Shown here: in pieces, positions 22,901-51,300 of the stretch
Layout of the letters: the number at the start of each line of letters is the position of its first letter
How positions within the stretch are numbered: the stretch's first letter is position 1
Assembly (NCBI GenBank): GCA_050084515.1
Contig: CM114271.1
Location: forward strand, 16,306,001 to 16,370,000
DNA: 64,000 nucleotides
DNA from: Blasia pusilla
Lineage: Eukaryota
Direction: 5' to 3'
Made by a program: the position numbers and the translations under genes
The notes under the pieces: generated by a model
Database searches by the model: none
What the model saw: only the letters and a program-made list of their open reading frames with translations
Told to the model about the DNA's origin: nothing

Positions 22901-25899
22901 ATATCTCTAATCTTCTAATCCACTTCCTCTTTGTTAATACATAAACTTTCCAACAAAACTTCCTCTTTGCTCCTCCTTTGCGTAGACAATTACCCCAAAT
23001 TAAGTCAAAAATCCTACTTCTTAAAAAACTTTCAAGAAAAGCAATTATCACATTTCTACGTTTTTTAGCAAATACATCAAAAACACTTCCATGATAAAAA
23101 AAAAAGATGGAAATTTTTTGTATCAGAAATACATAGAAAAAGAAAAAAATTTTGGAAAATAATTGTAATAATGGAAACGCTTTTGGAGATTTTAAATAAA
23201 AAATTGGGATAATTTTCCAAAACACAAGAACTTAGAGATGGAAAATGGGGAAACACACCAAAATATATTTAAAAATTATCTGTCTTACTATAAATATTTT
23301 CCAAGAAATATTTTATCAGATGAAGACTAAGAAAATATGAAGCCCTTATAAATGGAATGAGAAAATGAAGTTAAACATATATAATCCTATTTTCTGAGTT
23401 TTTATATATTTGAAGATAGAAGAAAATTTCCAAAATGGAATTCTATATTTGAACACTTTATGGTTTATTCAAATATTTGGGGATGGAATCTTAAAATATT
23501 TGAAAATTAGACTCAAAAGATAAATGAAAAAAATAAATAAATATTGCAAACGTATGAATATGAATATAGAATCAATATGGAGACTTTAATATATACAAAA
23601 AGTCGGATAAGGTTTTATATATATTAATATTCTTGTGTTGATAGGATTGGGAGGGTTGATGTATGATCTTTAATCCGGTTCATTTTAAATGGTCAAATAC
23701 ATGTGCCTATTGAAAATAAATCATTGTATGCCTTTGACCTTTGAAAGTGAATATGAAAATAAAGTTGGAGGATGTTCCTAGTTCAAAGATACTAGTTAGC
23801 ATTATCGTGCTTGCGCACGAAATTTATTTTTTTAATAACTTAGAAATATTTTTCATTTCAAAATCTAAACATAATTTCCAATTTATTAAATCTCAAAATA
23901 TTAATAAAATTTCACTTTTTAAAGTAATTCTATTCCTAAATTAAAATTTAAATAATACCCAATCCCTTAAATAATTCCACCCTTCCATGAAGTTTAAACA
24001 ATACCTACTTCCCCCCCCTCTATTCCTTCCATAAAAATAACACTCATTAATTAAAACAGTAACTAATAATTAATCTTAACTAATAAAATCATTCTCCTCT
24101 TCCATTCCAATTCAATTCCCCTCCTATCGATTGTGAATAAAGAGATAAAATTACAATTTTCCCCTATTTTGTCTTATTTTCCCACTGTTTTATCTTATTA
24201 TACATATAGGGTCTCTAATTATAATATTAATTAATTAAAATAATGAATAATCACTCTGAATTAGTAAATTAATTTTTCATTTTTTCTCAAATATATTTTC
24301 TCTTCCCATCAAATATGAATTTAGGGATAAAATCAAAAAATAATTTGTTTTTATTCACTTCCAAGGATCAAAGCCACATGCATTTGAACCTTGGAAATTT
24401 CTTTTATGAAACATAGTTAGCATCTTTTTCAATCAAAGTAAGGGATCATATATAGAAAAATATATAGAATCATCATGCTGTGTGGACGAACATGGATAAA
24501 ATATTTAAGACATTATTTTGTCATGTTTTCTTCTTTCATTATCAACTTCTTAACTTGATGTCTTTCAACATGGATTTGAATCAATATATCTTTGATTCAA
24601 GTATCATAAAATAACAAACCCCATTTATATATCACAAAGAGAAGTCTTATCATATCACCTCAACATAAGCCCCACATAAACTAGTTTCAATATACCAAAA
24701 GTAATATCACACCTAATAACATGGTTAAGTAGGTCTATTAAGACAATTAAATTGGTAGGCTCTAATACGAGGTCCGAAGGAATGGAGAGGATAAAAGAGT
24801 ACTCAAAATGCAATGAAGATATTGGATATGAATCTTGAGTGATGAATACTAGTTAATTATCGATGGAAATTTTAGATAACATGAGCTAAGAAGATATGGA
24901 AGTTGATTTATGATTATGAATATGTCAATGTAGTGCATCTTTTAGATGATCATGTAAGTAACTCTAAGCTTAGAACTTTAAGATGTTTGTGGTGTAGACA
25001 TAGAAAGGTCCGACATACTTTATGTCTTGTCTTGTTAGTGATGATGGATTTGTGGTTGTATATTATAGGTTGTTCCAATAGTAAAGAGTCAAAGAGCTCC
25101 CCTTCTTTGCATCTTGCCTATTTTAGGATTTAATTTGTAACCTAATCAAAACTTAATATATGTGAATGAAGCTCATCCCAAGTTTAAAGGTATATTTCAC
25201 TTAATGCTCGCTAGTAAGAGAATTTCCCCTATGCACCATTTGAAAAATTAAATCCAACGTAAAAAAATTCTTCTTCAAATTGGACATGTATAATCACAAG
25301 AGTATAAAATAATCTTTATCAAATCTGACATGTTTCATCACGAAAGGGTATGATTGACACAACGTGTCAACCATATGGGTGTCGCCATGGAAAGTAATCC
25401 TCACTTAATAATATAGATGATACGGAGGCCTAGGATGGGTTTTTTGAATTATTATTTATGTTTTTGATTTTTTGGATTGTGTATAAAAGTTTTATGTTGT
25501 ACTATGACCTCATCCTCTCATGTCATTCATTGGAGGATGGCTTTCACTCTCTTCCCACAACTTCTTTTATGGTTTTTCCAATTCCCTTCATTACTTTCTC
25601 CTCGAGTGTTAGATTTGGATGTGCTTAGTCTTATTTTGATTATCTTAGCAAGTTGGTTCATACCAAATGGATTTCCTAGTTTTGATTCATTCTTTGTTGT
25701 CAACTATCTTGTGTAAGGATTTTTAATATCAATTCCTCTCACAAATCTTTATTTAGTTTTTCAATATTTTACCTTAATATTTCTGCTTGCTTACATTTGC
25801 TATCTCCTTAAGGGACTTATAGATTCATATTCTTGAGTTGCCTCTATTAATATGATGTAGGTTTTTTCTTCATTTTTATTTTTATTCTTCTTGAGTGGG

Positions 25900-27034
25900 T
25901 TTTAATCATAATTTTGCCTTTGTCTAGTTGTTATTCTCTCCATGTAAATTTGTGCTCGATGGATTCTACTCCTCTTATTATGGCTCCTAATACTTTCACT
26001 TTATTACAAATTATTATGTTCCCACTTATTTTCTGGTTTTATTGCCTTTATGGTTGGATAATCCATCTCCTCGCTCATTTCTTTTTATATACCTAACTTG
26101 AACTGTAATCTCTTTCCTCCTCAATATAGATCTTACCATTTTCCTACAAATATTGGCGCATCCATGACACTTTTTATATTTCTACCCTATACTTTTTTTA
26201 TCCCCTCTATATCTCTTCCCATGCCACCCATCACAATCTTGATCAATTACTACCGAATCCTATTATTTTGCCATTCCCACATATCTTGTTTGAACCTCCT
26301 TGCTTAAGTCTCCCATCTTTTTCAATCGTTATCCCTTCTCTTCCTCCCTCCCTAACTTACTCATCCCCATATCATTTTCCATCATTACCTCCCATCTCTT
26401 CTCCTTGTAGAACTCCTTCTTCTATATATGTGACTAAAGGTTTGTTGGATACCTTGTGGTAAAGAGTTTGCTTCTAAACAGATAAAAGAAACACATGAAC
26501 CTTATTGTAGATCCATACAAGGGCCTTCATTCCCTAACTTGATATCCCCTCCCATGATTGGCACATTTAGTGGGAAGAGTCGTTGCTAAGGTCTCTAGTC
26601 AAGGTAAAAATACTGATTTTGAATTTTTTTCCAATCTCCGTGCATAAAGTGCTAAATACATGAGGTGGTTTCCCAATGACCCATTGAATTCTACCCTTGG
26701 GCAGAACTAAAACTCACTAGGGAAAGAATAATAGGAGAGTCTGAGCATTCTTATTCTTAGGATTGTGTGCTAACCTTTCTAATGGGAGCAACAATGCTCA
26801 TTGAATGATGAGATGACGAGTAGTAGGAATAATTGTGTAGAGTCTGGGACAAGGGAGATCAAGATGGAAAGAGCGATCATGCCAATCATGGGAGGCCTTT
26901 AATAAAAAAATACTTTCGCCATAGCCTACTTTTGAGGCAAGTTTGTGAGTTTTCAAGAGTGGCTCAAGAAATTGGGACCTTTCTTTTAGGAAGTTCCAAA
27001 TTTGGACATAGTGGCATTGGAAGATCTTGAACCT
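25900..27034 (+). mobile_element. Second, older copy of the CRE-like non-LTR element, with an internal inversion; truncated by element X
   Basis: INYYRILLFCHSHIS at about 26245 versus IHYYRILLLCHPHIS in copy 1; HANHGRP...SLLL.QV.EFSR at 26878-26960. Segment 26551-26877 matches 822-1143 in the opposite orientation to its flanks. Confidence 0.75.
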
Positions 27035-27248
27035 TGTCGTGCGCATACATATCGTTACACAACATACATCGCTGGTCACATCTACACAATAAAACACCGA
27101 TCTTCTCCACACACGGGTAGATCCACACATGTACAGAAATCAACTCATACATATACCTGGAGATCACACAATCGCCCCCCTAGCTGGCAGTTGGATCCCC
27201 CTAACTCCAGATAGAAAATATCACATCTCTTTCACATGACCTACTACC

Positions 27249-30703: not shown

Positions 30704-32124
<1,421 letters not shown>

Positions 32125-32990: not shown

Positions 32991-33299
32991 ACTGCCATAC
33001 AACGAGGGTATCCATTGGGATCAACGTCTCCACTTCAGGGGCCCGATCGCCACCTGACTCTCGCTACTCTGGGATAAAGGCATGACTCCACCCCTGCCTC
33101 ACGAGGTGGTTGGCACTCCTCTGTAGCTCTTGAGTCGTATCCCACAATGGTAAAGAGGTCTCGCCAACATGGGAAGAGGCACCCGCTATGGCCTGTCTCT
33201 CCGTGGGACTATCCGCTACTCGGACATCCTGTGCATGTGCATTCCCCTCCAACAGCTCTCATGACCAGCTTACGCTACTTGTGAAAGCTGCCAACGTGG

Positions 33300-33813
33300 T
33301 GTCATGTCTTTTAGGATAGATCGGTGGGATCTAATAGAGCGCCTTCATGAGTAGTGGAGGACACGCCCAGTAGGTCGAGGGTGACCTGCTGAGGCCCTTG
33401 GAAACCTGAGATAGCAGGTTTCCCCTTCGTTTCGGCTCATTTGGAGCCATATTGAGGAACTTACTATTTTAGGTAAGTACCATTTTGAGTATATGATCGA
33501 CTTACTATTTTTGGTAAGTGGCCCTTGACCTCCTACATCAAGTCAAGAGCCAAGGAGGTGACTTGAGAGAATAGGTTACCATGGAGAGAGCTTGGGAGAG
33601 GAGAGGGGTATACCTCAAGGAGAGAGAGCTTGAGAGCTCATTCTTTCTTTGTTGAACCTCTTGGCATGAGGCGGCGGAGCTATGGTACCTTGCCTTGTGA
33701 GTGTAACCCAAGCCTCTCATTAGGAGAGTGGGTTTGGTTTGACATGAGAGAGAGTGCACACCTTTGAGAGCTATGGTGTGAGATGGTGGAGAGAGAGATT
33801 GGATCTTACTTTA
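33300..33813 (+). repeat. V terminal repeat A1 (514 bp)
   Basis: Direct repeat of 42963-43476; about 9 substitutions and no indels by eye. Confidence 0.95.
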
Positions 33814-33828
33814 CAAAGAGAGAATGAG
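33813..33828 (+). promoter_or_regulatory. Putative self-priming primer-binding site of V
   Basis: ACAAAGAGAGAATGAG is complementary (15/16 plus one G:U) to CTCATTCTTTCTTTGT at 33637-33652, about 28 nt after TATA at 33609. There is no TGG tRNA-type PBS. Confidence 0.7.
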
Positions 33829-35559
33829 AGAATGAGAGAGTGAGAGAGCTTCATGGGGGAGCTCGCTGGTCACTCGCTGTTTTTGCAGGTTGGGGACCGT
33901 GTTCCCCGTTCAGCGGCTCATGGGAGTGCTCACCGGAGCAAGGGCTGCTTTCATTACTCTTTGCATTTGCCGATTTTTCGTGTGGAAGAGTGGCGCGCGG
34001 AAGCGCTGCCCAATTTCTGATAGGGATTGAGTATGGGGGCGGGTTGCCCCATGCTGGTGCTCTCGGGAGCACCATGTAGCTTGCTGATATGTATTTTTAC
34101 AGATGTTACATTTTCGTTGGGAGAAATCAGCGCGGGAGCGCTGCCGAATTTTGTGTAGGAGAAAGAGACATTGGGCTTTACGACAGTCCCCGTCAGTTTT
34201 TACTGAAATTTTCAATTCTAAATATTTTTTGATGATAGCGTAGATCATGAAGCTGTGCACGCTGTGCAACAAATAGTGCACAATTTGGAGTTGCGAGCAA
34301 AAAGTTATGGGCAATCTTATAAAGCTGCCATTGCTAGGCGATTTTTAGGGTTAAATCGTGCAAACCCTAAATCAGCCGCCACACCGGCGGTGGTCGTTGC
34401 CATCATAGTCACCGTCACCGTCGACGGTCAACCGTCACCGTCATCGGTCGGCCGTCACCATCAGCGGTCAACCGTCACTGTCAAGGGTCCACCGTCCATT
34501 GTCCACCCTTTAGGTGCCATTGCCGCGATTACGGAGTGGAGGGTCTTCCATGACGTTCGTTGATTCCTTGACTTGCGTCGCCACCACGTACTTTGTTTTG
34601 GCCGCCACCGTCATCGCAGTTTCTTCACCAACCAGTGAAGGCAGATGACCTCCGGTTATGGTGTTTGAGTTTTGATTTCATCTTTGCTATGTTGTGATTG
34701 GTAGCCGCCGGCGGCGATCGAGTATCGCGGTCGAACGCCCGTAGCCGCTAACGCGCCGCCGATTACCGCGCCCGTGCCGCTCGGGCGCACCGCACCATCT
34801 AGATCGCGGAGCCGCACCGTCATTGTGGAGCAGAGTGTGGGATTATTATTGATTGAGGAGGGTATGCCGAGTGCCATCCCACCATCGAGTGCCGCGGCGG
34901 TTCGTAGCCGTTGCGTCGCCGCAAACGCCGCGACCGTTCAATGGGACCGCATTGTCTATCGAGGAGTTTTGAGCAAGCATCGATGCGGGAGGAGTATGAC
35001 TTGCTGATTGGAGGAGTTGTCTCCACGATCGAGTTGGGGTCGAGATTTGCGATTCTTTGAGGAGCGACATCGACATGTGTTCAGGGTTACCCATTCTGGT
35101 CCTTTACCCTGCACATGTGAGGAATTCTGGTAGTTTATTTGGGGATATTGGGTGTGTGGATGCTGAGAGCATCATTTATGTATGTGGTTTAGGGGACATA
35201 GACCTGTGTGGGATGTCCAGAGTTGAGGGTAGGTTGTCGATGAGATGATAGCCTGGTCGATTTGCCGCACCATGCCGCGTGTTGCCGCACGTTACACGTC
35301 TCGGGGAGAGAGAGTGTAGATCGAGTGCCGCATGTTTGGGATGAGTGATTGAGGGATTCCTCACGAGGTTCAGAGTGATCGGGTGAGAGGGGCACGAGGG
35401 TCATCACGGAGTCTGTTCGGGACTTTGAGAGGCGAGGTGGTGAACCCGAGAGTAGCTCTAGAGGTTTTACGCGGAGTGGCGCGAGGTTTCGAGGGTCTCC
35501 ACGTGAGGGACCACCTCGACCTCCTTCTGTGTCATCGTGAGACGAGGGAGAGGGTGTAG

Positions 35560-36900
35560 AGGAGTTTGTGAGCACATCGCCACACATTGTGAGTGTTCCT
35601 ACCAGTTGGGCGTACGAGATGAACGACCGGGGTAGAGGACCGCGTAGGTTTTTAGGTGCAGTAGGCACGATTGAGTTGCACGATTTTATAGCAGAGTTTA
35701 GGAGTTGGTGCGACTCCTAGCGGGCCAGGAACTCTAGAGAGTTCAACCCGTTTACAGCATGGAAATGTATGTTCTAGCATTTAGAGTGGGCGCCCATGGA
35801 CGATTACCATGAGTTCTCTCACAGATATGCATGTGAGATCGAGGCGTGGAGGCTCTACTATGACCCACATTATGTGTTATGGACGGAGCCATTCCCAGAT
35901 GAGGAGGAGGAGTCAGGAGAGGCTATTGCCTCTTCCACTAGTGACGTTTTAGGAGGGGTCACTCGCACGGGAGCAGTTGCACCGTCTAGTCGGGTTCGTC
36001 CCAGGTTCAACCCTGTAGTTGAGTTCTTTGCTGATTTGAGGGCGAGCTACCAGGGGGTACGGACGGAGAAGTTGCGGAGCATCCACGACTTCCAGAGGCG
36101 CTCGGGTGAGAGTTTGCGTGAGGCTTACACTCGCTTGCGCCGGTTGATCAACGTCACTCAAGGGGTGACAGAGGCTCAGGCTATCCAGTCATGGTATGCG
36201 ATACTGGACCGGACCCTGCGGACACGGGTGCGGGAGGGGGTGCTTCTTATGAACACCTCCCCTACGTTGAGAGATGTTTTTAGGACCGCCGAGAACATTG
36301 AGCGCAACATGGCGGAGGAGAGCGTAGCCACCATGGGTTCTGGCGAGAGCGATCCACGATTGTCGCACCACTGCGGCAAAGAACGTGGACCGAGATGGGT
36401 CGGCAGTGGCACCACGAGCTCGGGGGGGAGGATACCGGGAGGCCGTGCCCACGAGACTGCGCCTTCATATGCGGCTCAACAGCGATCGCCTACTATTACT
36501 TGTTGGTCATGTGGTGGAGCCCATCATCGCCGCGATTGCACTCGTCGGTCACGGGCGTGTGCCTCAAAGATGGAGGAGGAGATGGTCTTTGCACCAGGAG
36601 GTTATCGGTGTGACTATTGTCGAGGTATGGTCATACACGCCCAGGTGTTTTAGTTTACATCTGAGTTACGTCTGGACCGAGGCCCAGAGGGCACCAGAGC
36701 GAGTAGCCGGTTCGGGTGGGCCTAAAGATCGTGCTCGGTGGTCCCGTTGGGGGGAGGAGCTGGAGTTTCCGGACAGGGTGGTGGAGTTGCCCGTGGAGGA
36801 GGTAGAGTACCACCACCTAGACGCCGCCGAGGGAGATGCCGGACGTGAGGCCGGGATGGGCGCTCGATACAAGCGACTACGAGGTCGATTGCCGCTATGG
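35560..36900 (+). pseudogene. Element V gag with zinc knuckles
   Basis: ORF 35796-36653: QRRSGESLREAYTRLRRL (gag major-homology-like), CWSCGGAHHRRDC, CDYCRG. Confidence 0.8.
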
Positions 36901-38310
36901 CATTGAGGTTACCGATGCCGGATCCGTGGCATCGACATCATATGGAGCAGCCAGAGATCCTGGAGGATCCTGGATGGATGTCGGGGTTGCCGGATGGAGG
37001 CGCCGCCGCGGTTGTGCGCGTGGAGCGCCGCAGAGTTGGATCCCAGCGGGGAAGCCGAGAGACAGACTAGGCTTCCTCAATCTTTCACGTTGTCCGAAGC
37101 GATGAGGACCCCATCGATGGGTCCTCATCAAAGTTCCTGGAGAGTTGGTAATGTTGTTGGTGTGCAAGCACGGAGGGCGATGGCAGAAGCGAGTGCAAAG
37201 ACTCCTATTGTTGATGCTCAGGAGGGGCATGTGTCGAGCACGTTGTTGGGGGCGGCCACCGTTGTGTACCGCACTCCTTTATTTCCTGCTTCCGATGTTG
37301 TGACGTTGGGAGGTACGCCCGCCGAGGCTTTTCGGCTGGCCGCTTCACTATGTGAGCGCGGAGTTGGAGTTCATGCATCACGTTCAGAGGTGATTGTAGA
37401 GGAGGTGATGGACCTGCCCTTGGAGCGGATGCTCGGGCCGTCCACGTCAGATTCATGGCAGTGCGATCGCTAGGATGGCGGAGATGCCCGCTAGACCCGC
37501 GATAGAGCATGCCATGGCTTCTCCTGGTGTTGTGTTCTTTGGATAATCGAGGAGAGGTCTTCCGGTTGGTGAGTCCTCGAGGTAGAGCTTTTAGTCTTGG
37601 CAGCCGGCGTCTTGTTGATTCGGGCGCAACCCTTGATGTTGGGGAAAGCGTCATTCAGAGGATTGGGCTTGCGAGCCGATGTGGAGTGTTGTCCATTTCG
37701 GATATAGACATCCTTGGGTGGAGCGAGTACCACCACGATATATCACCGACAGAGGTCGTGGTGAGGATTCGCCGGGACATCCTGAGATGAGTCCGTGGTG
37801 CGCGCCAAGGCGATAGTGATCGATGTTGAGTCCTCGACGTCTTGGTTGGTGGAGCGATGTTATACCCGATGGGGTTTTCCTGGATTCTTGGGAGGAGTCG
37901 GCGTCCCTGAGACCAGGATGGCGTCGGTGATGGGCGCCTTAGCTCATTATTCGTTCGATTCACAGTGCGATGATCGAACGGCCAGAGAGATGGCGACCTT
38001 AGCAAAGCATTTAGCAAAGTGCCATCACTTGGCCTAGTGATTTGATTGAGGACATGTCCATGCAGAGGATACTCCCGTTCTCGACATTTCTATGGAGAGG
38101 AGTGTTATGGTAGTGCATCATTCCGTGGAGGAGAGGTGCATTTGTGGGGCTCGGACCGAGGAGCTTCAACAATTGGCAGATCTTGACGTCGCGGCACAGC
38201 GTGGAGCGAGGCATTTGCACGAGCGTGCGCGGGTCCGAGGAACCCGAGGTAGCGGGAGTGCTATGATGACACCCTTGGATACTACACCCATTGTGTGGTG
38301 TACCGGAGGA

Positions 38311-39270
38311 GGGTATTCGAGTGTTAGATCTCTTTGGAGGGATTAGCACGGGTTAGCTCTGCTTTTGCAGTGCAGGAGTGCGAGTCTGGCAAAGACTTGT
38401 ATGTGGAGAGTGATGATGTTACGAGGCGCGTCTCACTACGATATGTGGCGCAATTACGCCCTCGTTTTCCCGACTTATTGTCTGCGTCCGTAGTACAGGG
38501 TACGAGTTCCCTCACAGAGGATATTTTGTTGTTGGGGCGCAGGACTTAGAGCGGTAGGGACCATTGATTTGGTCATTGCCGGTTGGCCATGTCGGGCCAA
38601 TCGAGTGTTGGACGAGGCAATGGTTCGCCGACACTCGGTCAGGTTGTTTTGGGAGATGTTGAGGGTCTTACGGCAGTTGCAGGAGCACCAATCTCGTTCT
38701 CCAGCCTACATTCTGGAGAATATGCCGATCTTAGGAGACTCCAGGTCACGGGTCGTGACGAGTGCTCATCAGGTGCGTGCCTGGATTGGCCCAGCAGTGT
38801 TCTTGGATGGGGCGAGTGTAGGTTCTAGAGCCCATCGCCCGCGTCTATGGTGGACCAACTTGGTGCCCCAGCGGTGTTATGGAGGGCGTATGCGAGAGTA
38901 GAGCGCCCCTCCCCTTTGTTAGTGGATTCCATTCTGGATCCAGGTCGTCGATCACAGGCAATGAGGCACGATGATCGACCACCGCTGACTGTGGTCAACA
39001 GGGTAGGCAGGCCACGGGCAGCCTTGCCCACGTTTGTGAGTTTTCCCGCTTCCTATGCATACAAGGAGGCCGGTCCTGGCTTGGTTTGGGATGACCAGGT
39101 TCAGCGGTTGGTGGAGCCCAACGCCGACAAGAGAGAGCGAGCGATGGGATTTCCCACAGGAGTGACGGCAGTACCATCAGTGTCAGAGGCATCACGACGC
39201 CATGTCTTTGGTCAGGCGATGGACCTGAACTACTTGACATGGATCCTCAGCTTGGGAGTGGCTGAGCAGC
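38311..39270 (+). pseudogene. Element V DNMT3-like C5 cytosine methyltransferase domain
   Basis: GIRVLDLFGGIS (38311), LVIAGWPC (about 38570-38592), LFWEMLRV, AYILENM (VI), RAHRPRLWWTN (VIII), RERAMGFPTGVT (IX), RRHVFGQAMDL (X). Several frameshifts. Confidence 0.9.
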
Positions 39271-39596
39271 GTCGTATGAGATCGCGACAGATCACAGCGG
39301 TTGCGTTGGTGAGCCCCATGCCTACCGAGACGGTGGAGGTAGTGGCTGGGGGCGAGACCCGAGGAGATCTACGCACCAGGGGAGATCGGGAGAGACACCC
39401 TTGGACTTCTTGGGATGTTTTGAAGGTATGCAAGGAGATGATAGCCACAACATCGAGCGCGGTTTCGGGCACTGCACGTGGAGGAGATCACAGTTTGCAG
39501 TTGGCTGCAGGAGAGCGGCCGAGTGTTTTTGTTCGAGACGGGGTTGCACCATAGCAACCACCGATACCCGCGCCGGAGAGTCCTACTGTAGTCACG

Positions 39597-41030
39597 ATGG
39601 AGACTTGGGAGCCAGATATGGGCCCTAAGTTGACAGGAGGAGAGCGGCGCCGAATACATCAGTTCCTCAGGAGTTATAGGAGCTGCTTTGCGTTTAGCAT
39701 GGAGGATTTGGGTACGCTGAAGGGACCGGGGATCCGCATTGAGTTGTCGAGTGATATGCCGATCTTTCGACGACCCTACAGGTATAGTGATATGGAGAGG
39801 GCTCTGATTAAGAGTAGGAGCCAAGACTTGGTCGGAGCAAGACTAGTGGAGATGTCGCATGGGGAGTATGCATCTGCCACTGTCATGCCCGCCAAGAAGG
39901 ATGTGCATGGCAACTAGACGGATAGGCGGATGTGTGGGGATTACCGACCTATCAATCGGCAGACGAAGTCCGATAGGTATGCCATGCCCACCCCTGAGGA
40001 GATCTTTGATGCGATTGGTCACGCAAAGGTCTTGATTCATTGATTTATGAGTGGATACCATCACCGCCTGCTATCGATTGGAGGACAGGCAGAAGACGGC
40101 ATTTTGGGGCATCGATCCTCACGGGAAGGATTGTTTGTACCAGTGGCGGTTCTTACCATTTGGGTTAAAGAACGCCCCGGCTGAGTTTCAGAGGGTCATG
40201 AATAGGATCTTGGCTGGTCTGGATTTTGCTAGGTGTTATATTGATGACATCGTAGTCTTTAGCGCCACGGTTGAGGAGCATGAGCAACATCTAGAGGAGG
40301 TGTTTCGACGATTGCAACTACATGGGCTGAAGCTACATCCACCAAGTGCAAGTTCTTCTACGACCAGATTGAGTACTTGGGTCATACGATATACCCAGGG
40401 GGCCTTGGTGTTCAGCAGACGAAGGTAGAGGCTATCTCACGCATTCCACGCCCTACAGATGTGAGCCGTGTTCGCGCATTCATGGGATTGGCGAACTTCT
40501 ATCGGCGATACGTCAAGGGATTCAGTTTGATTGGTCTTGGCCGACCTTGCTCACCAAGGTGGATCACGAGTGGCATTGGGGGGATGAGCAGGAGCGAGCA
40601 TTTCAGTTGCTCAAGGACAGGTTGACGTCCGCACCCATCTTGAGGAGACCGATCAGGGGGCGTCCTTTCCAGTTGCACACAGATTGGAGCATGTTGGGGC
40701 TTGGAGCGGTGCTCACCCAACATGATGATGAGGGTAGAGAGTTCGTGGTGGCTTACGCTAGCCGCTCGAACAACGCTGCAGAGGCGAAGTACAGCTCGTA
40801 TGAGGGTGAGTGCTTGGTCATGGTGTGGGTCGCCACATTTTAGGTGTTACTTATTCGGCAACCCCTTTACTATCATCACTGATCATCAACCACTGAAGTG
40901 GTTGATGGAGTCCGATAAGCTTACAGGGAAGCTTGCGAGATGGGCTCTGTTGTTGCAGGAGTATGATTTTCAGGTGGTACATAGACCTGGAATGCTCAAC
41001 CAGGATGCAGATGGGTTGAGTTGTAACCCA
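39597..41030 (+). pseudogene. Element V reverse transcriptase/RNase H
   Basis: YASATVMPAKKD, LPFGLKNAPAEFQRVM, CYIDDIVVFS, FMGLANFYRRYV, LHTDWSMLGLGAVL, YSSYEGECL, TDHQPL. Confidence 0.95.
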
Positions 41031-41219
41031 TGCCCGAGTCAGCGAGATGCAACTGGAGCTCGATGGCATGAAGAGAGTGATGAGGAGTCGGTGCCAAGAT
41101 GGCACGCGTCAGCCTATTTAGGCATGTTGGCTATGGAGAGCCAGAGTGTGGAGACTTCGATGGCGAGGTCTAGTGGAGAGTCTTTGGATCCCGAGGCCAG
41201 TGAGGACACGACAAGTGGC

Positions 41220-42659
41220 CGAGATATTCATGATGATGGAGTAGTCTTAGAGTACCTTCGTACTGGCAGCCTTGCGAGCACCATGGATGCTAGAGAGCGG
41301 GATCGGATCCTACAGCGGGCCTGACGGTTCCGTTCGGAGGGGACACATGTTTTGAGGGTTTGGGAGGATGGCAGAGTACGCGTAGTGCCGCATCCTTTGC
41401 AGAGAGCACGACTAGTGCAGCATGCCCACGAGGAGTTGGGTCACTTTGGGGTGAAGCGGACGTATAGCTTGCTCCAGATTCGAGATTGGTGGCGAGGCAT
41501 GCAGATCGCGTTCAGCAGCTTTGTTGCCAGGTGCATGGTGTGTGATCGGGTCGAGCATCGTTCTATGCTCCGACTCCACGATTGCATCCATTACCGATCA
41601 TGGGCTTAGGTATAGATGGAGTTTGGATTTTGCAGACCTTTGCCCTTGACGGAGCGTCACACGATCGTTATGTGTTGGTGATGGTGAGCACTTCTCGAAG
41701 TGGATCGAGTTGGTTGCATTGCCCGACAAAGCAAGTGAGGGAGTAGCTTATGCCTTCCTTGACAGTCTTTGTCGAGTCATTATGGCGCACCAACCGAGGT
41801 GTTGATGCACGGTACCGAGTTTCGCGGTGAGTTCAGGCCTTGTGTGATCAGGGCGATCGACCACCGACGATTTTCGCGAGATCATCCCGAGGCGGATGGA
41901 TTAGCGGAGAGAGTTGTGCAGACGGTGAAGAGGGGTTTACGCAAGTATGGCTTGCAGAGAGGTCACCTAGGAGATTGGGACCTCCAGTTGCCATGGTTGG
42001 CGATGGGATACAGATTCAACAGGCATGCATCCTTAGCGTCTTTTTCACCGTACTTGCTACTTTATGGCCGAGAGCCAGATTTTCCTGCGGCCATTCGTCG
42101 AGATGCTGGTGAGGTGCTGAACCTTGATGACCCAAATGTATGGGTGCGAGCATGTTCTCAGAGGGCTGAGTTATTTCGGAGAGTGATGCCCATGGCGTTC
42201 GAGAACTTGGCGATTGCACAGCATCGGGATACGTTGAGGTATGCGACTATTCGAGGTGGTGGTTATCGACCAACTATCCGGAGGTTTCATCAGGGAGATT
42301 ATGTCTATTTGCAGCAGACGGCACCAACGACGTTGGATGTGACTGCAGGGCGCACTATCCTGAGAGTGCATGACATTTTGCCATCGGGTGTTCTCTTGCT
42401 GGAGGGACGCGATGGTATGGTATGGCATGACCATGTGCGTAATTGTGCGCCATGTCACCTTCCTAACATTGATGGTACAGTAGATCCGAGCTTAGTAGTA
42501 GTTCCTGCAGGCTTGCGTTGTATGTTGTGTGGTTCTGCCCGTGGTGCGGCCACGATGCTAGTCTGTGATGGGTGTTCGAGAGGATGGCATATGGCATGTT
42601 TGATGCCACCTCTCACTAGGGTTCCTCAGGGACGATGGATGTGTCCCAGATGTACATAG
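41220..42659 (+). pseudogene. Element V integrase with C-terminal PHD finger
   Basis: HAHEELGHFG...CMVC (HHCC), ADGLAERVVQTVK, GDYVYL, CMLCGSARGAATMLVCDGCSRGWHMACLMPPLTRVPQGRWMCPRC (C4HC3). Confidence 0.92.
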
Positions 42660-42826
42660 AGAAGGTAGTTCTACATTCCGACTTGTGTCTATGACATGGA
42701 TGACAAGGAGGCGACTAACGATGGGGCCACATAAGCACCCGGCCTTCTTGCTCTTAGCGTCCGAGAGATGTATGTCATGGTAGGTAGGGATAGATGGCTA
42801 TCTGGAGTTAGAGGGACCTAACCACC

Positions 42827-42839
42827 AGCTAGGGGGGCG
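42827..42839 (+). promoter_or_regulatory. Polypurine tract of V
   Basis: AGCTAGGGGGGCG directly precedes repeat B1. The same motif precedes B in X (27173-27185) and W (58505-58517). Confidence 0.8.
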
Positions 42840-43604
42840 ATTGGAGATATTTTGGTTCTTCGTTATTTGGATGCCATGAGTTAGCATGGGATCATGCGTG
42901 TTTGTGTGTGTGTTCGGTGACAGCGATGTATGTTGTGTAGCGATGTGTATGCGCACGATAGCTGTCACGTCTTTTAGGATAGATCGGTGGGATCTAATAG
43001 AGCGCCTTCATGAGTAGTGGAGGACACGCCCAATAGGTTGAGGGTGACCTGCTGAGGCCCTTGGAAACCTGAGATAGCAGGTTTCCCCTTCGTTTCGGCT
43101 CATTTGGAGCCATATTGAGGAACCTACTATTTTAGGTAAGTACCATTTTGAGCATATGATCGAATTACTATTTTTGGTAAGTGGCCCTTGACCTCCTACA
43201 TCAGGTCAAGAGCCAAGGAGGTGACTTGAGAGAATAGGTTACCATGGAGAGAGCTTGGGAGAGGAGAGGGGTATACCTCAAGGAGAGAGAGCTTGAGAGC
43301 TCATTCTTTCTTTGTTGAACCTCTTGGCATGAGGCGGCGGAGCTATGGTACCTTGCCTTGTGAGTGTAACCCAAGCCTTTCATTAGGAGAGTGGGTTTGG
43401 TTTGACATGAGAGAGAGTGCACACCTTTGAGAGCTATGGTGTGAGATGGTGGAGAGAGAGATTGAATCTTACTTTAATTGGAGATATTTTGGTTCTTCTT
43501 GTCTCGTTGTTTGGATGCCATGAGTTAGCATGGGATCATGCGTATTTGTGTGTGTGTTTGGTGACAGCGATGTATGTTGTGTAGCAATGTGTATGCGCAC
43601 GACA
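42840..43604 (+). repeat. V 3' terminal block B1-GC-A2-B2
   Basis: B1 42840-42960 and B2 43477-43604 are direct repeats differing by a 7-bp indel and a few substitutions. A2 equals A1. Junction GCACGATA-GC-TGTCAC. Confidence 0.95.
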
Positions 43605-44380
43605 GTGGTCACAGACTCGTCTCGTGATTGACCTCCTCGTCTTGCAAAGTGCACGAGTAATTGACTCATCGGGCCGTCACTTGACCGCCACCCTGACCGA
43701 TAAGCAATGGTCTCCTCCCAAAAGTCAAGGATGAATCCTAGGGGATATAACACTGTACTCCCCACCAACACATCGTACAACTCAATTGGTGTCATAATCG
43801 CACGTGTGCTCACGTGTGCGCACCATAGCACTATCCGTCGCATGCTCTGGCTGGACTTTGAAAACTATCTCCTGTCGAGTCATATATTGCGTTGGTGACA
43901 CGCCCCCAATCAAGGTCTGTATCTGGAAGGGACAAGTCTCAATGTTGGCCTTCCGTGACCCCAACGCTAAACACGATGCCTTCCCTAACATCAAGGGCTG
44001 CGCTCCCGAATCAAGTAGAAACGCGTACGGGTGGTATACTATCCCTGTCGGACTAACCAAGAAAAATACTCCAACTCGATTATTCAATAACAATACTCCA
44101 TGTGTCACCAGGGCTCGCTCTATGGCCGGTCGAGCTGACATATCTACAAACTTCTCCGCCGCCGCATGCCATGACTCTATGGGGGACGTTCCGAGCACCG
44201 GATGTGAGGGCAAGTCCACCACCTCCTCAACTACCTCTGAACAAGAAGCAGTCACCTCTCCACGTTCACACAATGTGGCGACCAGCCGGAACACCTCAAT
44301 TGGTCCAACTCTCAATGATGCCGACTCTATGGCGGAAAATAGCGGAGTCTAGCTCACTCTGGTGACCAACTCCAACACTA

Positions 44381-44440
44381 TGGTTGACACTGACTCCACT
44401 CGAGCCACGACTGTGGCTCGAGTGGAGTCAGTGTCAACCA
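44381..44440. repeat. Perfect 28-bp-stem hairpin (4-nt loop) in X
   Basis: TGGTTGACACTGACTCCACTCGAGCCAC-GACT-GTGGCTCGAGTGGAGTCAGTGTCAACCA. Confidence 0.95.
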
Positions 44441-47007
44441 GTGATGTCGACATACCTGTCTGACCTGTAGGCACCGTTGGTCATTGAGGCACCATCGATG
44501 GTGTGTGTAGTGCCTCCGACAATGTGAATGACTGTGGAACCCTAGCGTGCCGCCCAACGGTCTCCTCCGTTGGGTCAATCTCAACTCCACCTCTAGATGG
44601 CTCAATGCATCTTGCAACACCACGAGTCACTACTGCAGCCGCCTCAACCTGAGCTGCACTACACATAAACCCCATACTAGCGAGATCCTCACCCGGGTCA
44701 GGGTAAGAGGTAGAAGTTGGAGCTACACTAGCTACTCGCGGCTCCATGCCTTCCCTGAGCAGCATCATCGTCACGGCAGCAATCCTCTGCTCTCCAACTG
44801 ATCGATGCGTGAGAGAAATGCTGGCTTTGGTGCTCTTGCTCCATCTCTTGTGGCTGGTGGTGGTCCTCTACCACCACGTCCAAGAAGAACTCCCTGACCT
44901 TCTCCAGGACGACCGCCCCGAGGCCCTTGGCATACCTCTGGACGTGCCTCTGGACGAAGGTCGAAACATCTATCCCTAGTCTGACCATATCTCTGGCAAT
45001 AGTCACACTAGTACTGTGGTGGGGCCATCCTCTGTGGTTCCTGACCAAATCTGAGGCGCTCGTGGTCCTCTCCCATGTTGTGTGGAGTCTCTCTGCATAT
45101 GGGCCTCTCCATACGTTCAACATGACAACATCGGTCCTTGCTGGGTAGCATATGTAGGTACGGGTCGTTGCCTCTTAGGCTCACAATACCCGCCTTGCTC
45201 TCTGGGCACACTTGCCCGCTTCCGTGGTACTGGTGCTCGTTGTGGCACTTGTGGGGTCACCGTCGCTCGTGGACCCGTCGACTCCCGAGAAAATCCACCG
45301 GTCATTACATGCTCCTCACTCATGTTGAGCTCAATACTCTCAGACAACTCAAAGATCACCTTCAATGTGGGCTTCGTTGTGTGAATCAGCACCGCATCTT
45401 GGACTCTCCTCTGTAGTTCTCGGTCCAGAATCCCATACCAATAAAAGATTGACTGCGTCTCAGTTATTCCACACGTAGCAATGATCAGCCTCCTCACGCA
45501 TCTGAATGTCTCTCTCAGATTCTCACCCGGCCGTCGCTGGAAATCTTGTAGACTCTTCAGCTTGTCGGTGAGTACGCCCTAGTAGCTCTTCCCCAACTAT
45601 CGGAAGAACTCCACTGTGGGACTGAAGCTGGGTGGCCCTCTACCACCAGAGGTCTTTGCCACATCGTCTGTCTCACTGCCCTCTTCTCCATCTAGTCTCT
45701 AGGCTGATGGTGTGGGTCTCTCTCCTCTCACGATCCCATCATATGCCTCACGACCACTAGTGGACACATACCCTGGAGCCCAATACATCCTCCACGCATC
45801 GATCTCTACTGAATATAGTGATTGAAACTCCATGAAATCATCCATCGGAGGACCCTCCAATTGTTGGAACAACCCCTTCCACACCATGAAAGGGTTTAAC
45901 CGTGTCGGGGTTCTTATCTCTTGGAAGTCGCACCACGTATTGAACTCTTGGATATCTAAGTCGATGGTGCCCATTGCACCCGAGAACCGACGCATGCCCC
46001 GATGGCCCATGTTGTCCATCTCTTGCCAAGTGATACCGCCTTCGTCTGCGATCTTGTCACCAGACCCAGTGTCTAGTGATGACGATCCAGCCATGGATGG
46101 ATGTCGAGGTAGCTCCTCACTCGTAACCCCTCGGTATCTCACTCCACTCCGTGGCACATCACTACTACTGCTCGCACTACCCCATTCTTCCAAAGCTTGG
46201 AAGAACGCCGTGATGACAACTCCGTCTCATCCGCTCAAGCACTCAGACTCACCGAGAGTCTCCCATACTCCTCACTAGCTCACATATGCTAACGTCAATC
46301 CCGTGATGACACACCCAACCTCACGCACACTCAACACTCAGGCTCACCATGAGCCTCCCACTAACTCATCTAACCTACCGACATGCTCGGGTCATACATG
46401 CGACCCCTACTCAGAAACCGCCATATATCCACCAATATGCTACATATAAAAAGAGTCTACACTCATCACCATCATTGCACCCATCTAGCACCAGCTACTA
46501 CTCGATATCCATGTCACATCTGAGTAGCCGATAGGCCGAGATCTATCGTGGATAGGGCGTAGGAGCCAGCGGACTATCTTGAGTGTAACTTTGTCCCACG
46601 GTGTTGGATGAGGTCGAGGATAGGTCCATTGTGTCAGGAACGTTGTTTCTGACAACTTTCATGTTGAGGTCTTTTACAGTCGGGTGACTTGTTGACTAGG
46701 TCACCCGCCCCTGATAACCTGTGTGCGCAGATTACCAAGTGAAGGGCTATTTTTAGGGGAAGAACCTTTTGGCTCTTCTCCTAAAAATAGCCAAACATCT
46801 TCTTCAACATGAGAAAGATGGCTTTCCTAAGCCATCTTTCTCATGTTGGGCCGTTGGAGCACATCCCTTGTATGTGTGTGAGCTAGGACTAGGGTGCTAG
46901 CGTCCGGATTCCTTGATAGCACAGGGTGGACGAGGTTCGATATGCCGATGTAGATTGAGGAGTGGAGTTTTACGCCGGGTGTGCCGTTTTTACTACTCTT
47001 TATTTCT

Positions 47008-47021
47008 ACATGAGAAAGATG
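47008..47021 (+). promoter_or_regulatory. Putative self-priming primer-binding site of Y
   Basis: ACATGAGAAAGATG is the exact complement of CATCTTTCTCATGT at 46833-46846 inside repeat A. In W's copy of A this motif starts about 31 nt after TATATAA. Confidence 0.75.
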
Positions 47022-47150
47022 TCAGGGGGCTGGTGGAAATTCGTTGTTTGCAGGTAGGCAAGCGAGTTGCCTTGGTCGGGAGCCCCTGGAGACATGTGTG
47101 TGACGTTTTGTGTGTCATTTTTCTGTTCGGAAGGCCGTGCGCAGAAGCGC

Positions 47151-48331
47151 TGTCGTATAGTAAAATCAACCAGTGTGTAAACTCCTTCGTCATTAAGTGT
47201 TAGATAGAGTTTCATTAGTATTAAGTAAATTGGCTTAGAAAAAAGAGATTCTTATGTTTAAACCTCTTTATGGTACCTCTTTTATGCAGGCCCAACTTTA
47301 GGAAAAGGAGGTAATAAATAAAAGATGACTTTATCAAAGTAAAGTAGTTGCTTTAATGAAAAGCAAAAGTAGTCTTGGTTGGTGGCTAGGTTAGTTGGGG
47401 TAATTTGGAAAATATCAAGTGGGTAAAAGAGGATATTTTGGAAGAGATAAGAGGAAATCTACTTGTGTCAAAATGTGATTGGCTAAGCCTTGAGAGGAAA
47501 CCATGTGGCACAAGATAAGATAAGTTCTATTTTGTACTCTTGTGAATCCCTTGTGAGTATATAAAGAGGAGGGACCTTCAAGGGTTCATCACCTTCTATT
47601 CCACATCTTGAGTCTCTCGTGTCTCTCTTGAGTGTATGGCTTTGGGATTGCTTGCTCTTCAAATGAGAGTGGATCACCCCTCTTGGGAGAGTAACTTGAC
47701 CATGGTCTATTCTTCGAGAGATTTCTAGAGTGTGGTGTGTGTGTGTGGGGATGAGAGGTTTGTCACCGTAGAGGAGTTTAGTCATACTAAAATAGCGGAT
47801 GTGTCAAGCATGGATAGGGGTGGAGCACGAGCTGTGCCCGACTTTCCTTTCCTCAATCCTTACCATGTCAAGGTACTTTTTGTAGATAGGCACTGGTTCA
47901 CTCGCTATTTAGTTTATCATTTTGGGGAGGCGTTCATGAACCAGGTCATGCAATCTCCAACTCCGGTGATTCTTCCTATTGTCACATATGGAAGGACATG
48001 GGATTGTACTTTGTATGTCCTTATATAGCGATCCATGGATGTCAATAGGCCTGCTCAAGTAGGGTTTAACACTAGTTGTGCTATCTTCCTCGTGTACAAG
48101 CGTAAAATAGTTTATAGGGATTTTATAGTTAGGAATTTTGGGGTCCGATGTTACGAAGAAGTGATCGCCTCGGCACTTCCATTTGTGATACCTGTCGTGA
48201 GAGAATGGAGAGTGTACATCATAATTTTGTATTGAAAAAGGAGAACTTATTAGAGAGTTCACCTTGCATCGACCGCATCTATCGCAGCTAGAAGGCCCGC
48301 CCTTGCTCGAAGAAAGACTCTCGACACGACA
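47151..48331 (+). mobile_element. Solo unit U2 (TGTCGT...ACGACA, TSD GCGC)
   Basis: GCGC at 47147-47150 and 48332-48335; TATATAAA at about 47558; homologous to U1. Confidence 0.9.
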
Positions 48332-51300
48332 GCGCTGTCCATTTTTCTTAGATTTTGCTGGTGCGGAATGATGGGGGACAGCAGGAGGGTGTCGCGTAGG
48401 TTGTGTTGGCATGAGTAACGTCGTCTTATAGCTCGTGGAATGTTGGGAGTACCCTGGGAGAAGAGTTAGAACTTGCAGCTGCCAGGGGGCTGTCAAGTAA
48501 AGGGCTGGTCTAGGGTTAGGGCGCGGCGGCGACGGGCGCCCTAAACGCGCGCTGGCGGGTATCGGAGGTATCGCCGATGCTGCTAGATGGGTGCAGTGAT
48601 GGTGACCAGTGTAGATTCTTTTCATGTGTAGCATGTTGGTGGATATACGGCGTTGCCGAGTAGGGGTCGTGTGTATGACCCGAGAGAGTGTCGCTAGGTT
48701 AGGTGAGTCAGTTGGGAGGCTCATGGTGAGCCCGAGTGTTGAGCGTGCGTGAGGCCGGGTATGTCATCACGAGATTGATGTTAGCATAGGTGAGCTAGTG
48801 AGGCGTGTGGGAGACTCTCGGTGAGTCTGAGTGCTTGAGCGGGTGAGACAGGGTTTGTCATCACGGCGTTCTTCCAGGGTTCTGAAGAACGGGGTAGTGC
48901 GAGCAGTAGTAGTGGTGTGACACAGAGTGGAGTGAGATACCGAGGGGTTACCAGTGAGGAGCTCCCTCGACATCCATCCGTGACTGGATCGTCATCACGG
49001 ACATTGGGTCCGTGGCGAGATCACGCAGAGCGAAAGATAATACTTGGCAGGAGATGGACGACATGGGCCATCGGGGCATGCGTCGTTTCTCGGGTGCAGT
49101 GGGCACCATCGACTTAGATGATTTTATCCAGGAGTTCGACACATGGTGCGACTTCGAGGAGATACGGACCCCAGACGGTTCAACCCTTTCATGGCATGGA
49201 AGGGATTGTTCCAACACTTAGAGGGTCACCCGATGGATGCCTACATGGAGTTTTGATCACTATATTCAGTAGAGATCGATGCTTGGAGGATGTATTGGGC
49301 TCCAGGGTATGTGTCCACTAGTGGTCGCGAGGCATATGATGGGATTGTGAGAGGAGAGAGACCCACACCATCAGCCCGGAGACTAGATGGAGAGGAGGTC
49401 AGTGAGACAGGCGATGTGGTAGAGACCTCTGGTGGTAGAGGGCCACCTAGCTCCAGCCCCACAGTGGAGTTCTTCTGACAGTTGGGGAAGAGCTACCAGG
49501 GCGTACGCACCGACAAGCTGAAGAGTCTAGAGGATTTTGAGTGACGATCGGGTGAGAGTCTGAGAGAGGCATTCACACGCATGAGGAGGCTGATCATTGC
49601 TACGTTTGGAGTGATTGAGGCACAGTCAGTCCAGTATTGGTACGGGGTTCTGGACCAAGAACTACAGAGGAGAGTCCGAGATGCGGTGCTGATTCACACA
49701 GCGAAGCCCACATTGAAGGTGGTCTTTGAGTTGTCTAAGCGTATTGAGCTCAACATGAGTGAGGAGCAGGTAGTGACCGCTGGATTTTCTCGAGAGTCGA
49801 CGGGTCCACGAGCGACGGTGATCCCATAGGTGCCACTGCGAGCACTAGTACCACGGGAGCGGGCCAGTGTGCCTAGAGAGCAAGGCGGGTACCGTGAGCC
49901 TATGAGGCAACGACCCGCACCTACATATGTTGCCCAGTAGGGATCGATGTGGTCTTGTTGGACGTGTGGAGGGGCCCATAGGCAGAGAGACTGCCCACAC
50001 CATGGGAGAGGACCACCAACGCCTCCAATTGCTCAAGAGCCACAGAGGATGGCCCAACCACAGCACCAGTGTGACCATTGCCACAGATATGGTCACACTA
50101 GGGATAGATGTTTTGACCTTCGCTGAGGGGCACGTCTAGAGGTAGGCCGAGGGCTTGGGGGCAGTCGTCTTGGAGGAAGTCGGGGAGTTCTTCCTAGACG
50201 TGGCGGTAGACGACCACCACCAGCCAGAGGAGATGGAGCAGGAGCACCAGAGCGGGCACTTCTCTCACGCATCGATCAGTTGGAGCAGAGGATTGCTGCC
50301 ATGACGATGATGCAGCTTGGGGAAGGCACGGAGCTGCGAGCAGCTAGTGTGACTCCAACTTCTATCTCTTACCTTGACCCGGGTGAGGATCTCGCTAGTA
50401 TGGGATTTATATGTAGTGCAGCCCAGGTTGAGGCAGCTGCAGTGATGACTCGGGGTGCTGCGAGAGGCACCGAGCCATCGAGAGGTGGAGTTGAGATTGA
50501 CCCACAAGAGGGGACCGATGGGCGGCAGGCCAGGGTTCCACAGTCGTTCACATTGTCAGAGGTACTACACACACCATCGATGGTGCCTCGACGACCAGCG
50601 GTGCCTACAGTTCAGGCATCTACGTCGACGTCACGAGGAGTTGGAGTGACAACTCCTATGCCGACTCGAGTGGAGTCAATTTCGACCATAGTGTTGGAGG
50701 TGGCCACCAGAGTGAGTCACACTCCGCTATTTTCCGCCATAGAGTTGGCGACGTTGGGAGTTGGACTAGTTGAGGTGTTCCGGTTGGCCGCCACGTTGTG
50801 TGAGTGTGGAGAGATGACTGCTTCTTGTTCAGAGGTAGTTGAGGAGGTGGGGGACTTGCCCTCAGAGCCGGTGCTTGGGACGTTCCCCACAGAGTCATGG
50901 CATGCGGCGGGCGAAGTTGCTAGATATGCCACTCGACCGCCATCAAATGAGCGATGGTGACACTGAGTAGTGTTACTGGATAACCGAGCTTGAGTATTTT
51001 GCTTGGTTAGTCCGACGGGGATGGTACACCACCCGTAGCGCATCCTACTTGATTCGGAAGCGCAACCCTTGATGTTAGGGAAGGCGGCGTGTTTAGCGTT
51101 TGGGTTACGAAAGGCCAACAGTGAGCCTTGTCCCTTCCAGATATAGACCTCGATTGGGGGCGTATCACCCACTCAGTATATGACTCGACAGGAGATTGTT
51201 GTCAGAGTCCAGCCAGAGCATGCGACGGAAAGTGCTATGGTGCGCGCACGCGTGCGATTACGACACACCGTAAGTGCGATGTCTTGGTGGGGAGAACCGT

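Follow-up and report, generated by a model that had tools for sequence, protein, structure and literature searches.

Split-repeat Ty3/Gypsy-type retrotransposons of Blasia pusilla and their relatives, in which the integrase probably recognizes a unit other than the LTR formed by reverse transcription

We analyzed a 64,000-nucleotide (nt) stretch of Blasia pusilla DNA (contig CM114271.1, positions 16,306,001 to 16,370,000 of the forward strand; hereafter, the window), focusing on element V, which occupies positions 33300-43604 on the plus strand. V reads A1-internal region-polypurine tract (PPT)-B1-GC-A2-B2 between the termini TGTCA...ACGACA, and reading of the sequence finds the target-site duplication (TSD) GTGG on its left (33296-33299) and on its right (43605-43608). 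A1 (33300-33813) begins with TGTCA and is 514 nt long, as is A2 (42963-43476), to which it is 98.2% identical by BLAST. The likeness of the two stops after ..cttacttta, where A1 continues with C and A2 with B2. B1 (42840-42960, 121 nt) stands directly after the PPT taggggggcg (42830-42839; ..ctaggggggcg, then B1) and is separated from A2 by the spacer GC (42961-42962). B2 (43477-43604, 128 nt) ends in ACGACA, meets A2 at a seam (43476/43477), and is 91% identical to B1 over 126 BLAST columns, one 7-nt indel included. Inside the element, two integrase ends stand back to back (42955-42968), reading ACGATA-GC-TGTCAC. The boundaries, the GTGG duplication, the TG...CA ends, and the order of the repeats had all been claimed in a first-pass annotation of this DNA, and all of them hold in repeat search, BLAST, and sequence reading.

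V is nested inside another element, W', and a second W' copy (57.7-64 kb) provides the empty site. There, the flanks are contiguous and hold a single ATGG (63229-63232), which shows that V arose by one discrete insertion event that duplicated 4 bp of the target. V is a real and recent insertion, a frame-broken, non-autonomous-looking copy of a Ty3/Gypsy-type retrotransposon. Its TG...CA termini and 4-bp TSD are those of a Ty3/Gypsy element. The two complete, identical terminal long terminal repeats (LTRs) of such an element are absent; in V and the relatives described below, the 5′ end has A only and the 3′ end has either B-NN-A-B, NN being two nucleotides (GC in V), or B only. A PPT adjoins the 3′ repeat and a primer site adjoins the 5′ repeat, as in Ty3/Gypsy elements, and the repeat so defined is B-NN-A, not A-B.

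To find the coding content, we read V in three plus frames, with stops as X, and in three minus frames, and searched Pfam. The plus frames gave RVT_1, RT_RNaseH_2/RT_RNaseH, Integrase_H2C2, and PHD, in this order, and the three minus frames gave no Pfam match. Reverse transcriptase (RT) and RNase H lie in broken frames at 40072-41324 on the plus strand (RVT_1 9.4e-16, RT_RNaseH_2 6.7e-25, and also RT_RNaseH). An integrase with a C-terminal PHD finger follows on the same strand at 41400-42659 (Integrase_H2C2 6.6e-11, PHD 1e-9), its DDE core being assigned by homology to another element of the window, W. W has an intact open reading frame (ORF) of 408 aa in which Pfam finds Integrase_H2C2, rve (1e-12), and PHD. 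L021, a distant relative from metagenome contigs, carries RT, RNase H, H2C2, rve, and PHD together in one unbroken ORF of 1754 aa; it is the only metagenome locus with a long intact ORF, and end repeats were looked for in it but not found. The tyrosine-recombinase domain Phage_integrase (PF00589) was absent from the six frames of V, from three frames of the metagenome relative L008, and from the ORFs of L021. With the pol order RT-RNase H-integrase seen in V and L021, V and W are Ty3/Gypsy-type elements with a DDE integrase and not a tyrosine recombinase, as the rve match in W and the lack of Phage_integrase in V bear out for the first-pass annotation.

A C5 DNA methylase domain (PF00145 at 3.4e-8) is found upstream of RT in the window element W3, at 50900-52668. 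Positions 38642-38862 of V match 52092-52312 of W3, inside this region, and a frame-broken C5 DNA methylase-like stretch of V, with approximate limits 38300-39100 on the plus strand, has the motifs DLFGGISTG, GWPC, and ILEN by eye. Pfam gave no DNA methylase match in V, even at E <= 1, and none in L008, so in both the motifs are seen by eye only. Members of V's clade have a PHD-finger DDE integrase, and at least some of them also encode a C5 DNA methylase. Among named proteins, those closest to the W integrase-PHD ORF are from liverworts, with 80-81% identity for Calypogeia and Riccia and 65-80% for Marchantia, followed by 63% for Sphagnum, 52-54% for Klebsormidium nitens, and 47% for Haematococcus. 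As judged from these sequence matches, the clade spans streptophytes and green algae.

Comparing raw RNA runs under the same species label with the window, we find that the V family is transcribed on the sense strand. In the RT/RNase H region of V, RNA reads skip 1067 nt at 39718-40786 (9 + 14 reads) and 31 nt at 40473-40505 (7 + 14 reads); no DNA contig does so among the matches listed. The skipped stretches could be due to spliced or deleted expressed relatives.

The layout of V recurs in W, whose 3′ end (57761-58517) lies on the minus strand. It consists of the PPT (to 58505), B1 (58504-58367), GC (58366-58365), A2 (58364-57899), TT, and B2 (57896-57761), and then flank; the internal ends read ACGACA-GC-TGTCAC. 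The A sequences of V and W are unalignable by BLAST, and their B sequences are alike (93-95%) over the last ~43 nt only. This confirms, for the minus strand, the earlier claim that W shares the PPT-B-GC-A-B end of V with an unrelated A. The PPT is kept in W and also in W', whose 3′ end (27035-27180, minus strand) has the PPT, B (27172-27035), and flank, without A2-B2. The 5′ end of W3 (46512-47021, plus strand) shows flank directly followed by TGTCAC and the rest of A1 (46512-47005), then the primer-binding site and the leader.

We scanned metagenome contigs with the integrase-PHD ORF of V. This matched 198 stretches, of which 159 were confirmed, and 80 loci were kept. A B profile made from the metagenome copies had 95 matches in 60/80 loci; 11 of the 20 loci without a match have <900 nt downstream. 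The 60 B-positive loci, grouped by 3′ flank (L030 with L028), represent 29 distinct places. In 18 of these, the PPT (aataggggggca) is followed directly by B (~97 nt) ending in CA, then by NN, by A (190-600 nt) starting with TG, and by a second B, whose CA borders the flank. Seventeen of these places were found by profile, and the remaining one is L066/67, whose second B only BLAST finds. Nine places have PPT-B directly before the flank, and 2/29 are uninformative. The two nucleotides between CA and TG in the metagenome places are AT, AC, GC, or GT, and a degraded version of the B-NN-A-B pattern is present in L034/35 and L052/53. An A profile gave 48 matches, and each A standing after B-NN is followed by B. 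Four distinct metagenome A copies (L006, the L008/43/44 group, L051 on the minus strand, and L055) show the 5′ configuration, in which flank is followed by TG-A and then by the leader. Thus, none of the six visible 5′ ends (V, W3, L006, the L008 group, L051 on the minus strand, and L055) has a B. The relatives L008 and L055 also have 4-bp TSDs, CATA/CATA in both cases.

B is kept across families with differing A, whereas A keeps its start TGTCAA.., its end ..TTGCAAGTGAG..TTTT, and one middle block. The metagenome B profile did not match the B of the window; the likeness of the last ~45 nt was seen by eye. The ~97-nt B (e.g., L008 10183-10277) is conserved far beyond the ~10-20 bp usually needed by an integrase end. 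B may be an extended integrase site, or it may act through RNA or DNA structure. V and W have the same layout with unalignable A sequences, and 18 metagenome places add to them, so the layout is a property of the lineage and not an accident. This agrees with the first-pass annotation, which had presented it as a family trait that A+B at both ends of most members would overturn; A+B appeared at none of the six 5′ ends. By their split direct repeats, A1...B1-A2-B2, V, W, and the metagenome relatives match the DIRS order. The pieces also have similar ages. Substitutions in V number 9/514 for A1/A2 versus 5/121 for B1/B2, and the A-pair and B-pair identities are 79% versus 87.5% in L008 and 84% versus 85% in L055. 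The similar divergence of the A and B pairs in V, L008, and L055 argues that all four pieces date from the insertion.

We then asked which repeat reverse transcription would make from such an element. In 5/6 families, A is followed by 14 nt that are complementary to a site within A itself, 124-176 nt short of its end. In V, the putative self-priming primer-binding site CAAAGAGAGAATGA (33814-33827, plus strand) stands directly after A1 and is complementary to 33638-33651, the predicted RNA start and the start of the repeated (R) region. The complementarity is 13/14 in V, 14/14 in W3 (site 46833-46846), and 13/14 in L006, levels reached by 0/500 shuffles in each case. It is 13/14 in L008 (5/500 shuffles) and 12/14 in L051 on the minus strand (13/500). 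The sequences after A and at the inner site differ between families yet stay complementary, showing that the two sides co-vary. By eye, the inner site is preceded at 29-33 nt by a TATA-like box, namely cctatataag in W, gtatacc in V (~33 nt), and gggatataatccc in three metagenome families. In self-priming of the Tf1 type, the first nucleotides of the RNA pair with a site after the 5′ unique (U5) region. The primer complementarity and the TATA-like box together suggest this type of priming in V's clade. A transfer RNA (tRNA)-type primer site was considered and dropped, there being no TGG after A. The first-pass annotation had A end exactly at the primer site; the position stands, but the site is complementary to the inside of A and is not of the tRNA type.

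The putative self-primer adjoins A directly and so places the end of U5 at the end of A. At the other boundary, RNA reads from expressed relatives follow V as far as 42839, beyond which they lead into a different B (loose end at 42840; 34 + 75 reads). This divergence, along with the PPT, makes the start of B the start of the 3′ unique (U3) region. Under the standard rules of LTR reverse transcription, these two boundaries give a complementary DNA (cDNA) of the form [B-NN-A]-primer site-internal-PPT-[B-NN-A]. The LTR made by reverse transcription is thus very probably B-NN-A, and the PPT and self-primer boundaries support the earlier claim that it is B-GC-A with the TG and CA ends inside. By this definition, A1 of V holds part of the promoter, R, and U5, B1 is the start of U3, and the seam between A2 and B2 joins the end of U5 to the start of U3. 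The predicted outer ends of the V cDNA, ATTGG... and ...CTTTA, are not integrase ends. The TG and CA integrase ends stand instead back to back inside each B-NN-A LTR, 2 bp apart. In V's clade, what reverse transcription produces as the repeat and what the integrase recognizes are probably two different units. Two other assignments were dropped. One was a second PPT before A2, and none is present. The other gave B the role of R or of a poly(A) region, in which B would be uncopyable if priming occurs at the site after A. By eye, a G run follows the primer site by ~20-45 nt in V (33840-33870, catgggggagc) and in W3 (47020-47040, tcagggggctgg). This run resembles the 3′ PPT and could be a second plus-strand primer.

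The seam between A and B is variable. Run X1 yields DNA contigs in which A, ending at 33806-33815, meets B, starting at 43476-43488; at least 10 variants of this joint were read from short contig pieces at 90% likeness with sides of 21-28 letters. The letters between A and B in these variants include TG, C, TTTGG, and ATTAGATTT. In some of them, letters are lost on either side, and one retains 6 nt of the polypurine tract. One variant also occurs in X3, a DNA run of another study. Extra letters are present at the seam in W (TT) and in L008 (two G), and there is no homology between the end of A and the start of B. We take the joining of cDNA ends to be the probable source of the seam. An origin from 1-LTR circles only was dropped, as it cannot give a seam between A and B.

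These boundaries, ends, and seams can be assembled into the following cycle. Transcription would start inside A1, ~175 nt before its end, and terminate in A2. The first ~14 nt of the RNA would fold back onto the sequence after A, with which complementarity is observed, and would prime the minus strand as in Tf1. The plus strand would start at the PPT, so that U3 begins with B, in keeping with the observed boundaries. The finished linear cDNA would be [B-NN-A]-internal-[B-NN-A], with outer ends that are not integrase ends. The end of A would next be joined to the start of B, giving the seam that is observed and varies between copies. In the LTR adjoining the primer site, the integrase would then nick after CA on both strands at ACGACA-NN-TGTCA, and the two nicks, 2 bp apart, would release ordinary recessed CA-3′OH ends. 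Insertion with a 4-bp duplication would produce A-internal-B-NN-A-B, whose ends and duplication are observed. This form alone keeps R on both sides of the RNA, and it alone is therefore able to found new copies. As a whole, the scheme of a permuted LTR, joined cDNA ends, and integrase opening at the internal site is the account we favor, with moderate confidence. That the joined molecule is specifically a closed circle is more doubtful, and we put this forward tentatively.

Several observations weigh against this scheme. If the intermediate is a 2-LTR circle, opening at the palindrome by the primer site would give A-internal-B-NN-A-B, and opening at the other palindrome would give its mirror form, A-B-NN-A-internal-B. 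A symmetric 2-LTR circle has two identical palindromes, so random opening predicts both forms equally. However, none of the 48 A-profile matches has the arrangement flank-A-B or B-NN-A-leader, and none of the 95 B-profile matches lies upstream of an internal region. The mirror form could hide in at most ~5/9 single-B places, as against 18 places with A-internal-B-NN-A-B, which does not fit a 1:1 ratio. Four single-B places are not the mirror form, L006 having a plain A 5′ end, and L045, L056/57, and the L063-73 group having 9-10 kb upstream without a second B. The X1 and X3 contigs are uninformative here, as their junction types are common to both forms. Moreover, no extrachromosomal form and no closed circle was seen in the data examined. 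Integrase cleavage of the internal site in V's clade is postulated by analogy. Some of the seam variants may be later mutations. The primer complementarity of L055, an old copy, is 10/14, which 416/500 shuffles reach and which is non-significant. RNA reads begin at 43025, 43342, and 34123, none of which is the predicted start (43301 when counted in A2). Finally, the end 4-mers of the single-B copy L006, GGTA and TGTT, do not match.

Directional opening, fast collapse by A x A recombination, or a one-sided template jump on a linear molecule remain as explanations for the absence of the mirror form. Of the three forms predicted by the first-pass annotation, A-internal-B-NN-A-B and A-internal-B (W' and nine metagenome places) exist, while A-B-GC-A-internal-B was never found. 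The single-B copies can be the third predicted form or, equally, later B1 x B2 deletions. From its interpretation, the permuted LTR, the internal integrase ends, and the joined cDNA ends are retained, and the closed circle stays doubtful.

The one-sidedness would be explained without any closed circle if the plus strand, on reaching the right end of the linear cDNA, jumped from the 5′ end of its template to the 3′ end of a minus strand and recopied B. The RT-defined LTR would again be B-NN-A. Some 120-130 nt suffice to reach CA, and the integrase would use the internal TG of the left LTR with the new CA on the right. A short extension is enough on the right, whereas the left would need all of A, and the 18 metagenome places together with V and W are indeed of one form, with no mirror form. 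Reverse transcriptases that jump end to end between templates typically add one or two letters, and W and L008 have 1-2 such letters at their seams. On the other hand, the variants with losses on both sides (33806 joined to 43477, 33812 joined to 43488) or with 5-9 inserted letters look more like end joining. At the left end, ~123 bp of duplex would also have to be removed, and integrases are not known to do this. We regard this jump as unlikely compared with joined cDNA ends.

V and W might also be rare tandem, recombination, or nested-insertion derivatives of a conventional element that has two full LTRs (A+B at each end), and a conventional relative is in fact present in the window. This is Y, a 1.18-kb unit (47151-48331, plus strand; TGTCG...ACGACA, TSD GCGC) inside the W3 leader, with a second copy (30704-32124, minus strand; TSD ACGG) inside W'. 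RNA reads of Y are abundant (depth 60-176), and 111 + 221 reads carry a polypurine run (..GGAGGGGGTGAA) directly before TGTCG. Y looks like a solo LTR of a conventional, expressed relative with integrase ends of the V/W type. V and W share with it the TGTC...ACGACA termini and the 4-bp duplications, but the TG of Y comes directly after the polypurine run, whereas B intervenes in V and W. B-GC-A also resembles a classical LTR-LTR circle junction. Against such an origin, an A+B 5′ end is missing in 6/6 cases, and the same layout is found in two window families with unrelated A and in 18 distinct metagenome places. In addition, B always begins at the PPT, A always ends at a co-varying primer site, and V entered its empty site as one unit. 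These findings make the tandem or recombination origin very improbable. Even less credence is due to the idea that these are DIRS/Ngaro/PAT-type elements integrated by a tyrosine recombinase, although A1...B1-A2-B2 is typical of those elements according to figure legends of one article (PMC5890265, legends of Figs 1e and 4c). The six frames of V lack Phage_integrase; H2C2, rve, and PHD stand in line after RT and RNase H; the ends are TG...CA, and the 4-bp target duplications are backed by the empty site. For the copies examined, gene content and target duplications refute the tyrosine-recombinase reading. An assembly artifact of collapsed repeats is just as implausible. Among the contigs and reads listed, none spans B1-A2-B2 of V itself, but the same junction types recur in contigs from two DNA runs that belong to separate studies. 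They also occur in many independently assembled metagenome contigs, where pairs such as L016/L017 and L031/L032 have identical bases at the junctions.

The first-pass annotation had taken the layout to be undescribed for Ty3/Gypsy elements, and on this point it was mistaken. De Mendoza et al. 2018 (PMC5890265), in the legend of their Fig. 4c, assign to KnitGypsy-Dnmt3 of Klebsormidium nitens a DIRS repeat structure with Gypsy domains. Like KnitGypsy-Dnmt3, as presented there, the elements studied here combine a Gypsy pol, a C5 DNA methylase in the polyprotein (here in W3), and A-coding-B-A-B repeats. They differ from it in host and family, the W integrase ORF being 52-54% identical to K. nitens proteins and so not of close identity. 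In the passages of that article concerning the element, neither a TSD nor primer or PPT boundaries, an internal palindrome, or a mechanism is given, and the word "circular" is absent from them; the supplements lie outside this scope. In the literature, the remark on the layout was found in PMC5890265 only, with no mechanistic follow-up for KnitGypsy or for PHD-integrase Gypsy elements of algae and Marchantia. An excerpt of a 2026 preprint mentions "streptophytes (Gypsy-DNMT3)" in passing. The literature on split direct repeats with integrase or DDE yielded tyrosine-recombinase elements only. V and W are further members, in another host group, of a layout noted once before. New here are the TSD proven by an empty site, the conserved internal CA-NN-TG, the self-primer defining U5, the variable seam, at least 18 further metagenome places, and the absence of the mirror form.

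Elements with split repeats and a tyrosine recombinase reportedly integrate from circles and leave no target duplication. V and W share with PAT, Ngaro, TOC1, and SymbioDIRS-Dnmt3 the order A1-internal-B1-A2-B2 and, under the proposed cycle, the logic that the integrated copy is opened at an internal B/A junction. Unlike these, they have a DDE integrase, TG...CA ends, and 4-bp duplications, where the DIRS order has no TSD. In Tf1, both LTRs are ordinary, and the integrase uses their outer ends. As in Tf1 and sushi, the sequence after U5 in V's clade is complementary to the (here predicted) start of the transcript and not to a tRNA, but the integrase ends lie 121-138 bp inside the RT-made LTR. 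A DDE integrase acting on an internal CA...TG palindrome has retroviral parallels. According to passages of the respective reports, the integrase of the spumavirus PFV (prototype foamy virus) cuts the LTR-LTR palindrome of 2-LTR circles, giving processed linear DNA (PMC1180852), and tetrameric HIV-1 (human immunodeficiency virus type 1) integrase cuts this palindrome in vitro (PMC1905944). In V's clade, the same kind of cleavage would give processed ends. The retroviral palindrome, however, is made by joining the cDNA ends, in a side path. That of V's clade is carried in U3 and copied through RNA, the seam is non-palindromic and would stay uncut, and the route would be obligatory.

Beyond these elements, the window from 26 kb onward is a nest of retroelements. 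W3 (plus strand) has apparently inserted head to head into the leader of W' (minus strand), at 46494-46511. W3 and W' are 86% identical over 2.9 kb in inverted orientation (43605-46493 and 48578-52668), and W3 breaks off at 52668. Another Gypsy-type element, at ~54000-57760 on the plus strand, shows gag zinc knuckles, a protease motif, and the start of RT by eye from translations, and stops at 57760, where the 3′ end of W truncates it. In the V leader, upstream of the recognizable coding region, repeat search finds four 20-nt tandem units of the CCGTCACCGTC.. type (34412-34491, plus strand). A 6-kb stretch at 20000-26000 has ~30% G+C, compared with 42-58% in the rest of the window.

In textbook LTR elements, the cDNA is linear and its outer ends are the integrase sites. 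Here, the sites defined by reverse transcription (PPT and self-primer) and those defined by integration (TG...CA and TSD) differ by a circular permutation, and they do so across families and in at least two host groups. Elements with the permuted LTR are numerous in the metagenome contigs examined. For annotation, this means that programs looking for two equal terminal repeats will mis-call such elements, taking them for DIRS, for solo fragments, or for a pair of 514-bp "LTRs" whose 3′ end is misplaced. We further suggest, with doubt having a slight edge, that a streptophyte clade with a PHD-finger integrase, and often a DNA methylase, must join its cDNA ends before integration. Its DDE integrase would then cut, in the manner of a restriction enzyme, a palindromic attachment site inside U3 that is inherited via RNA. 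If the mechanism is true, these elements would be a natural system for testing joined-LTR forms as integration substrates. LTR-LTR junction forms, long held to be dead ends, would then be an obligatory intermediate in a natural lineage, and the split-repeat strategy of the DIRS type would be independent of the tyrosine recombinase.

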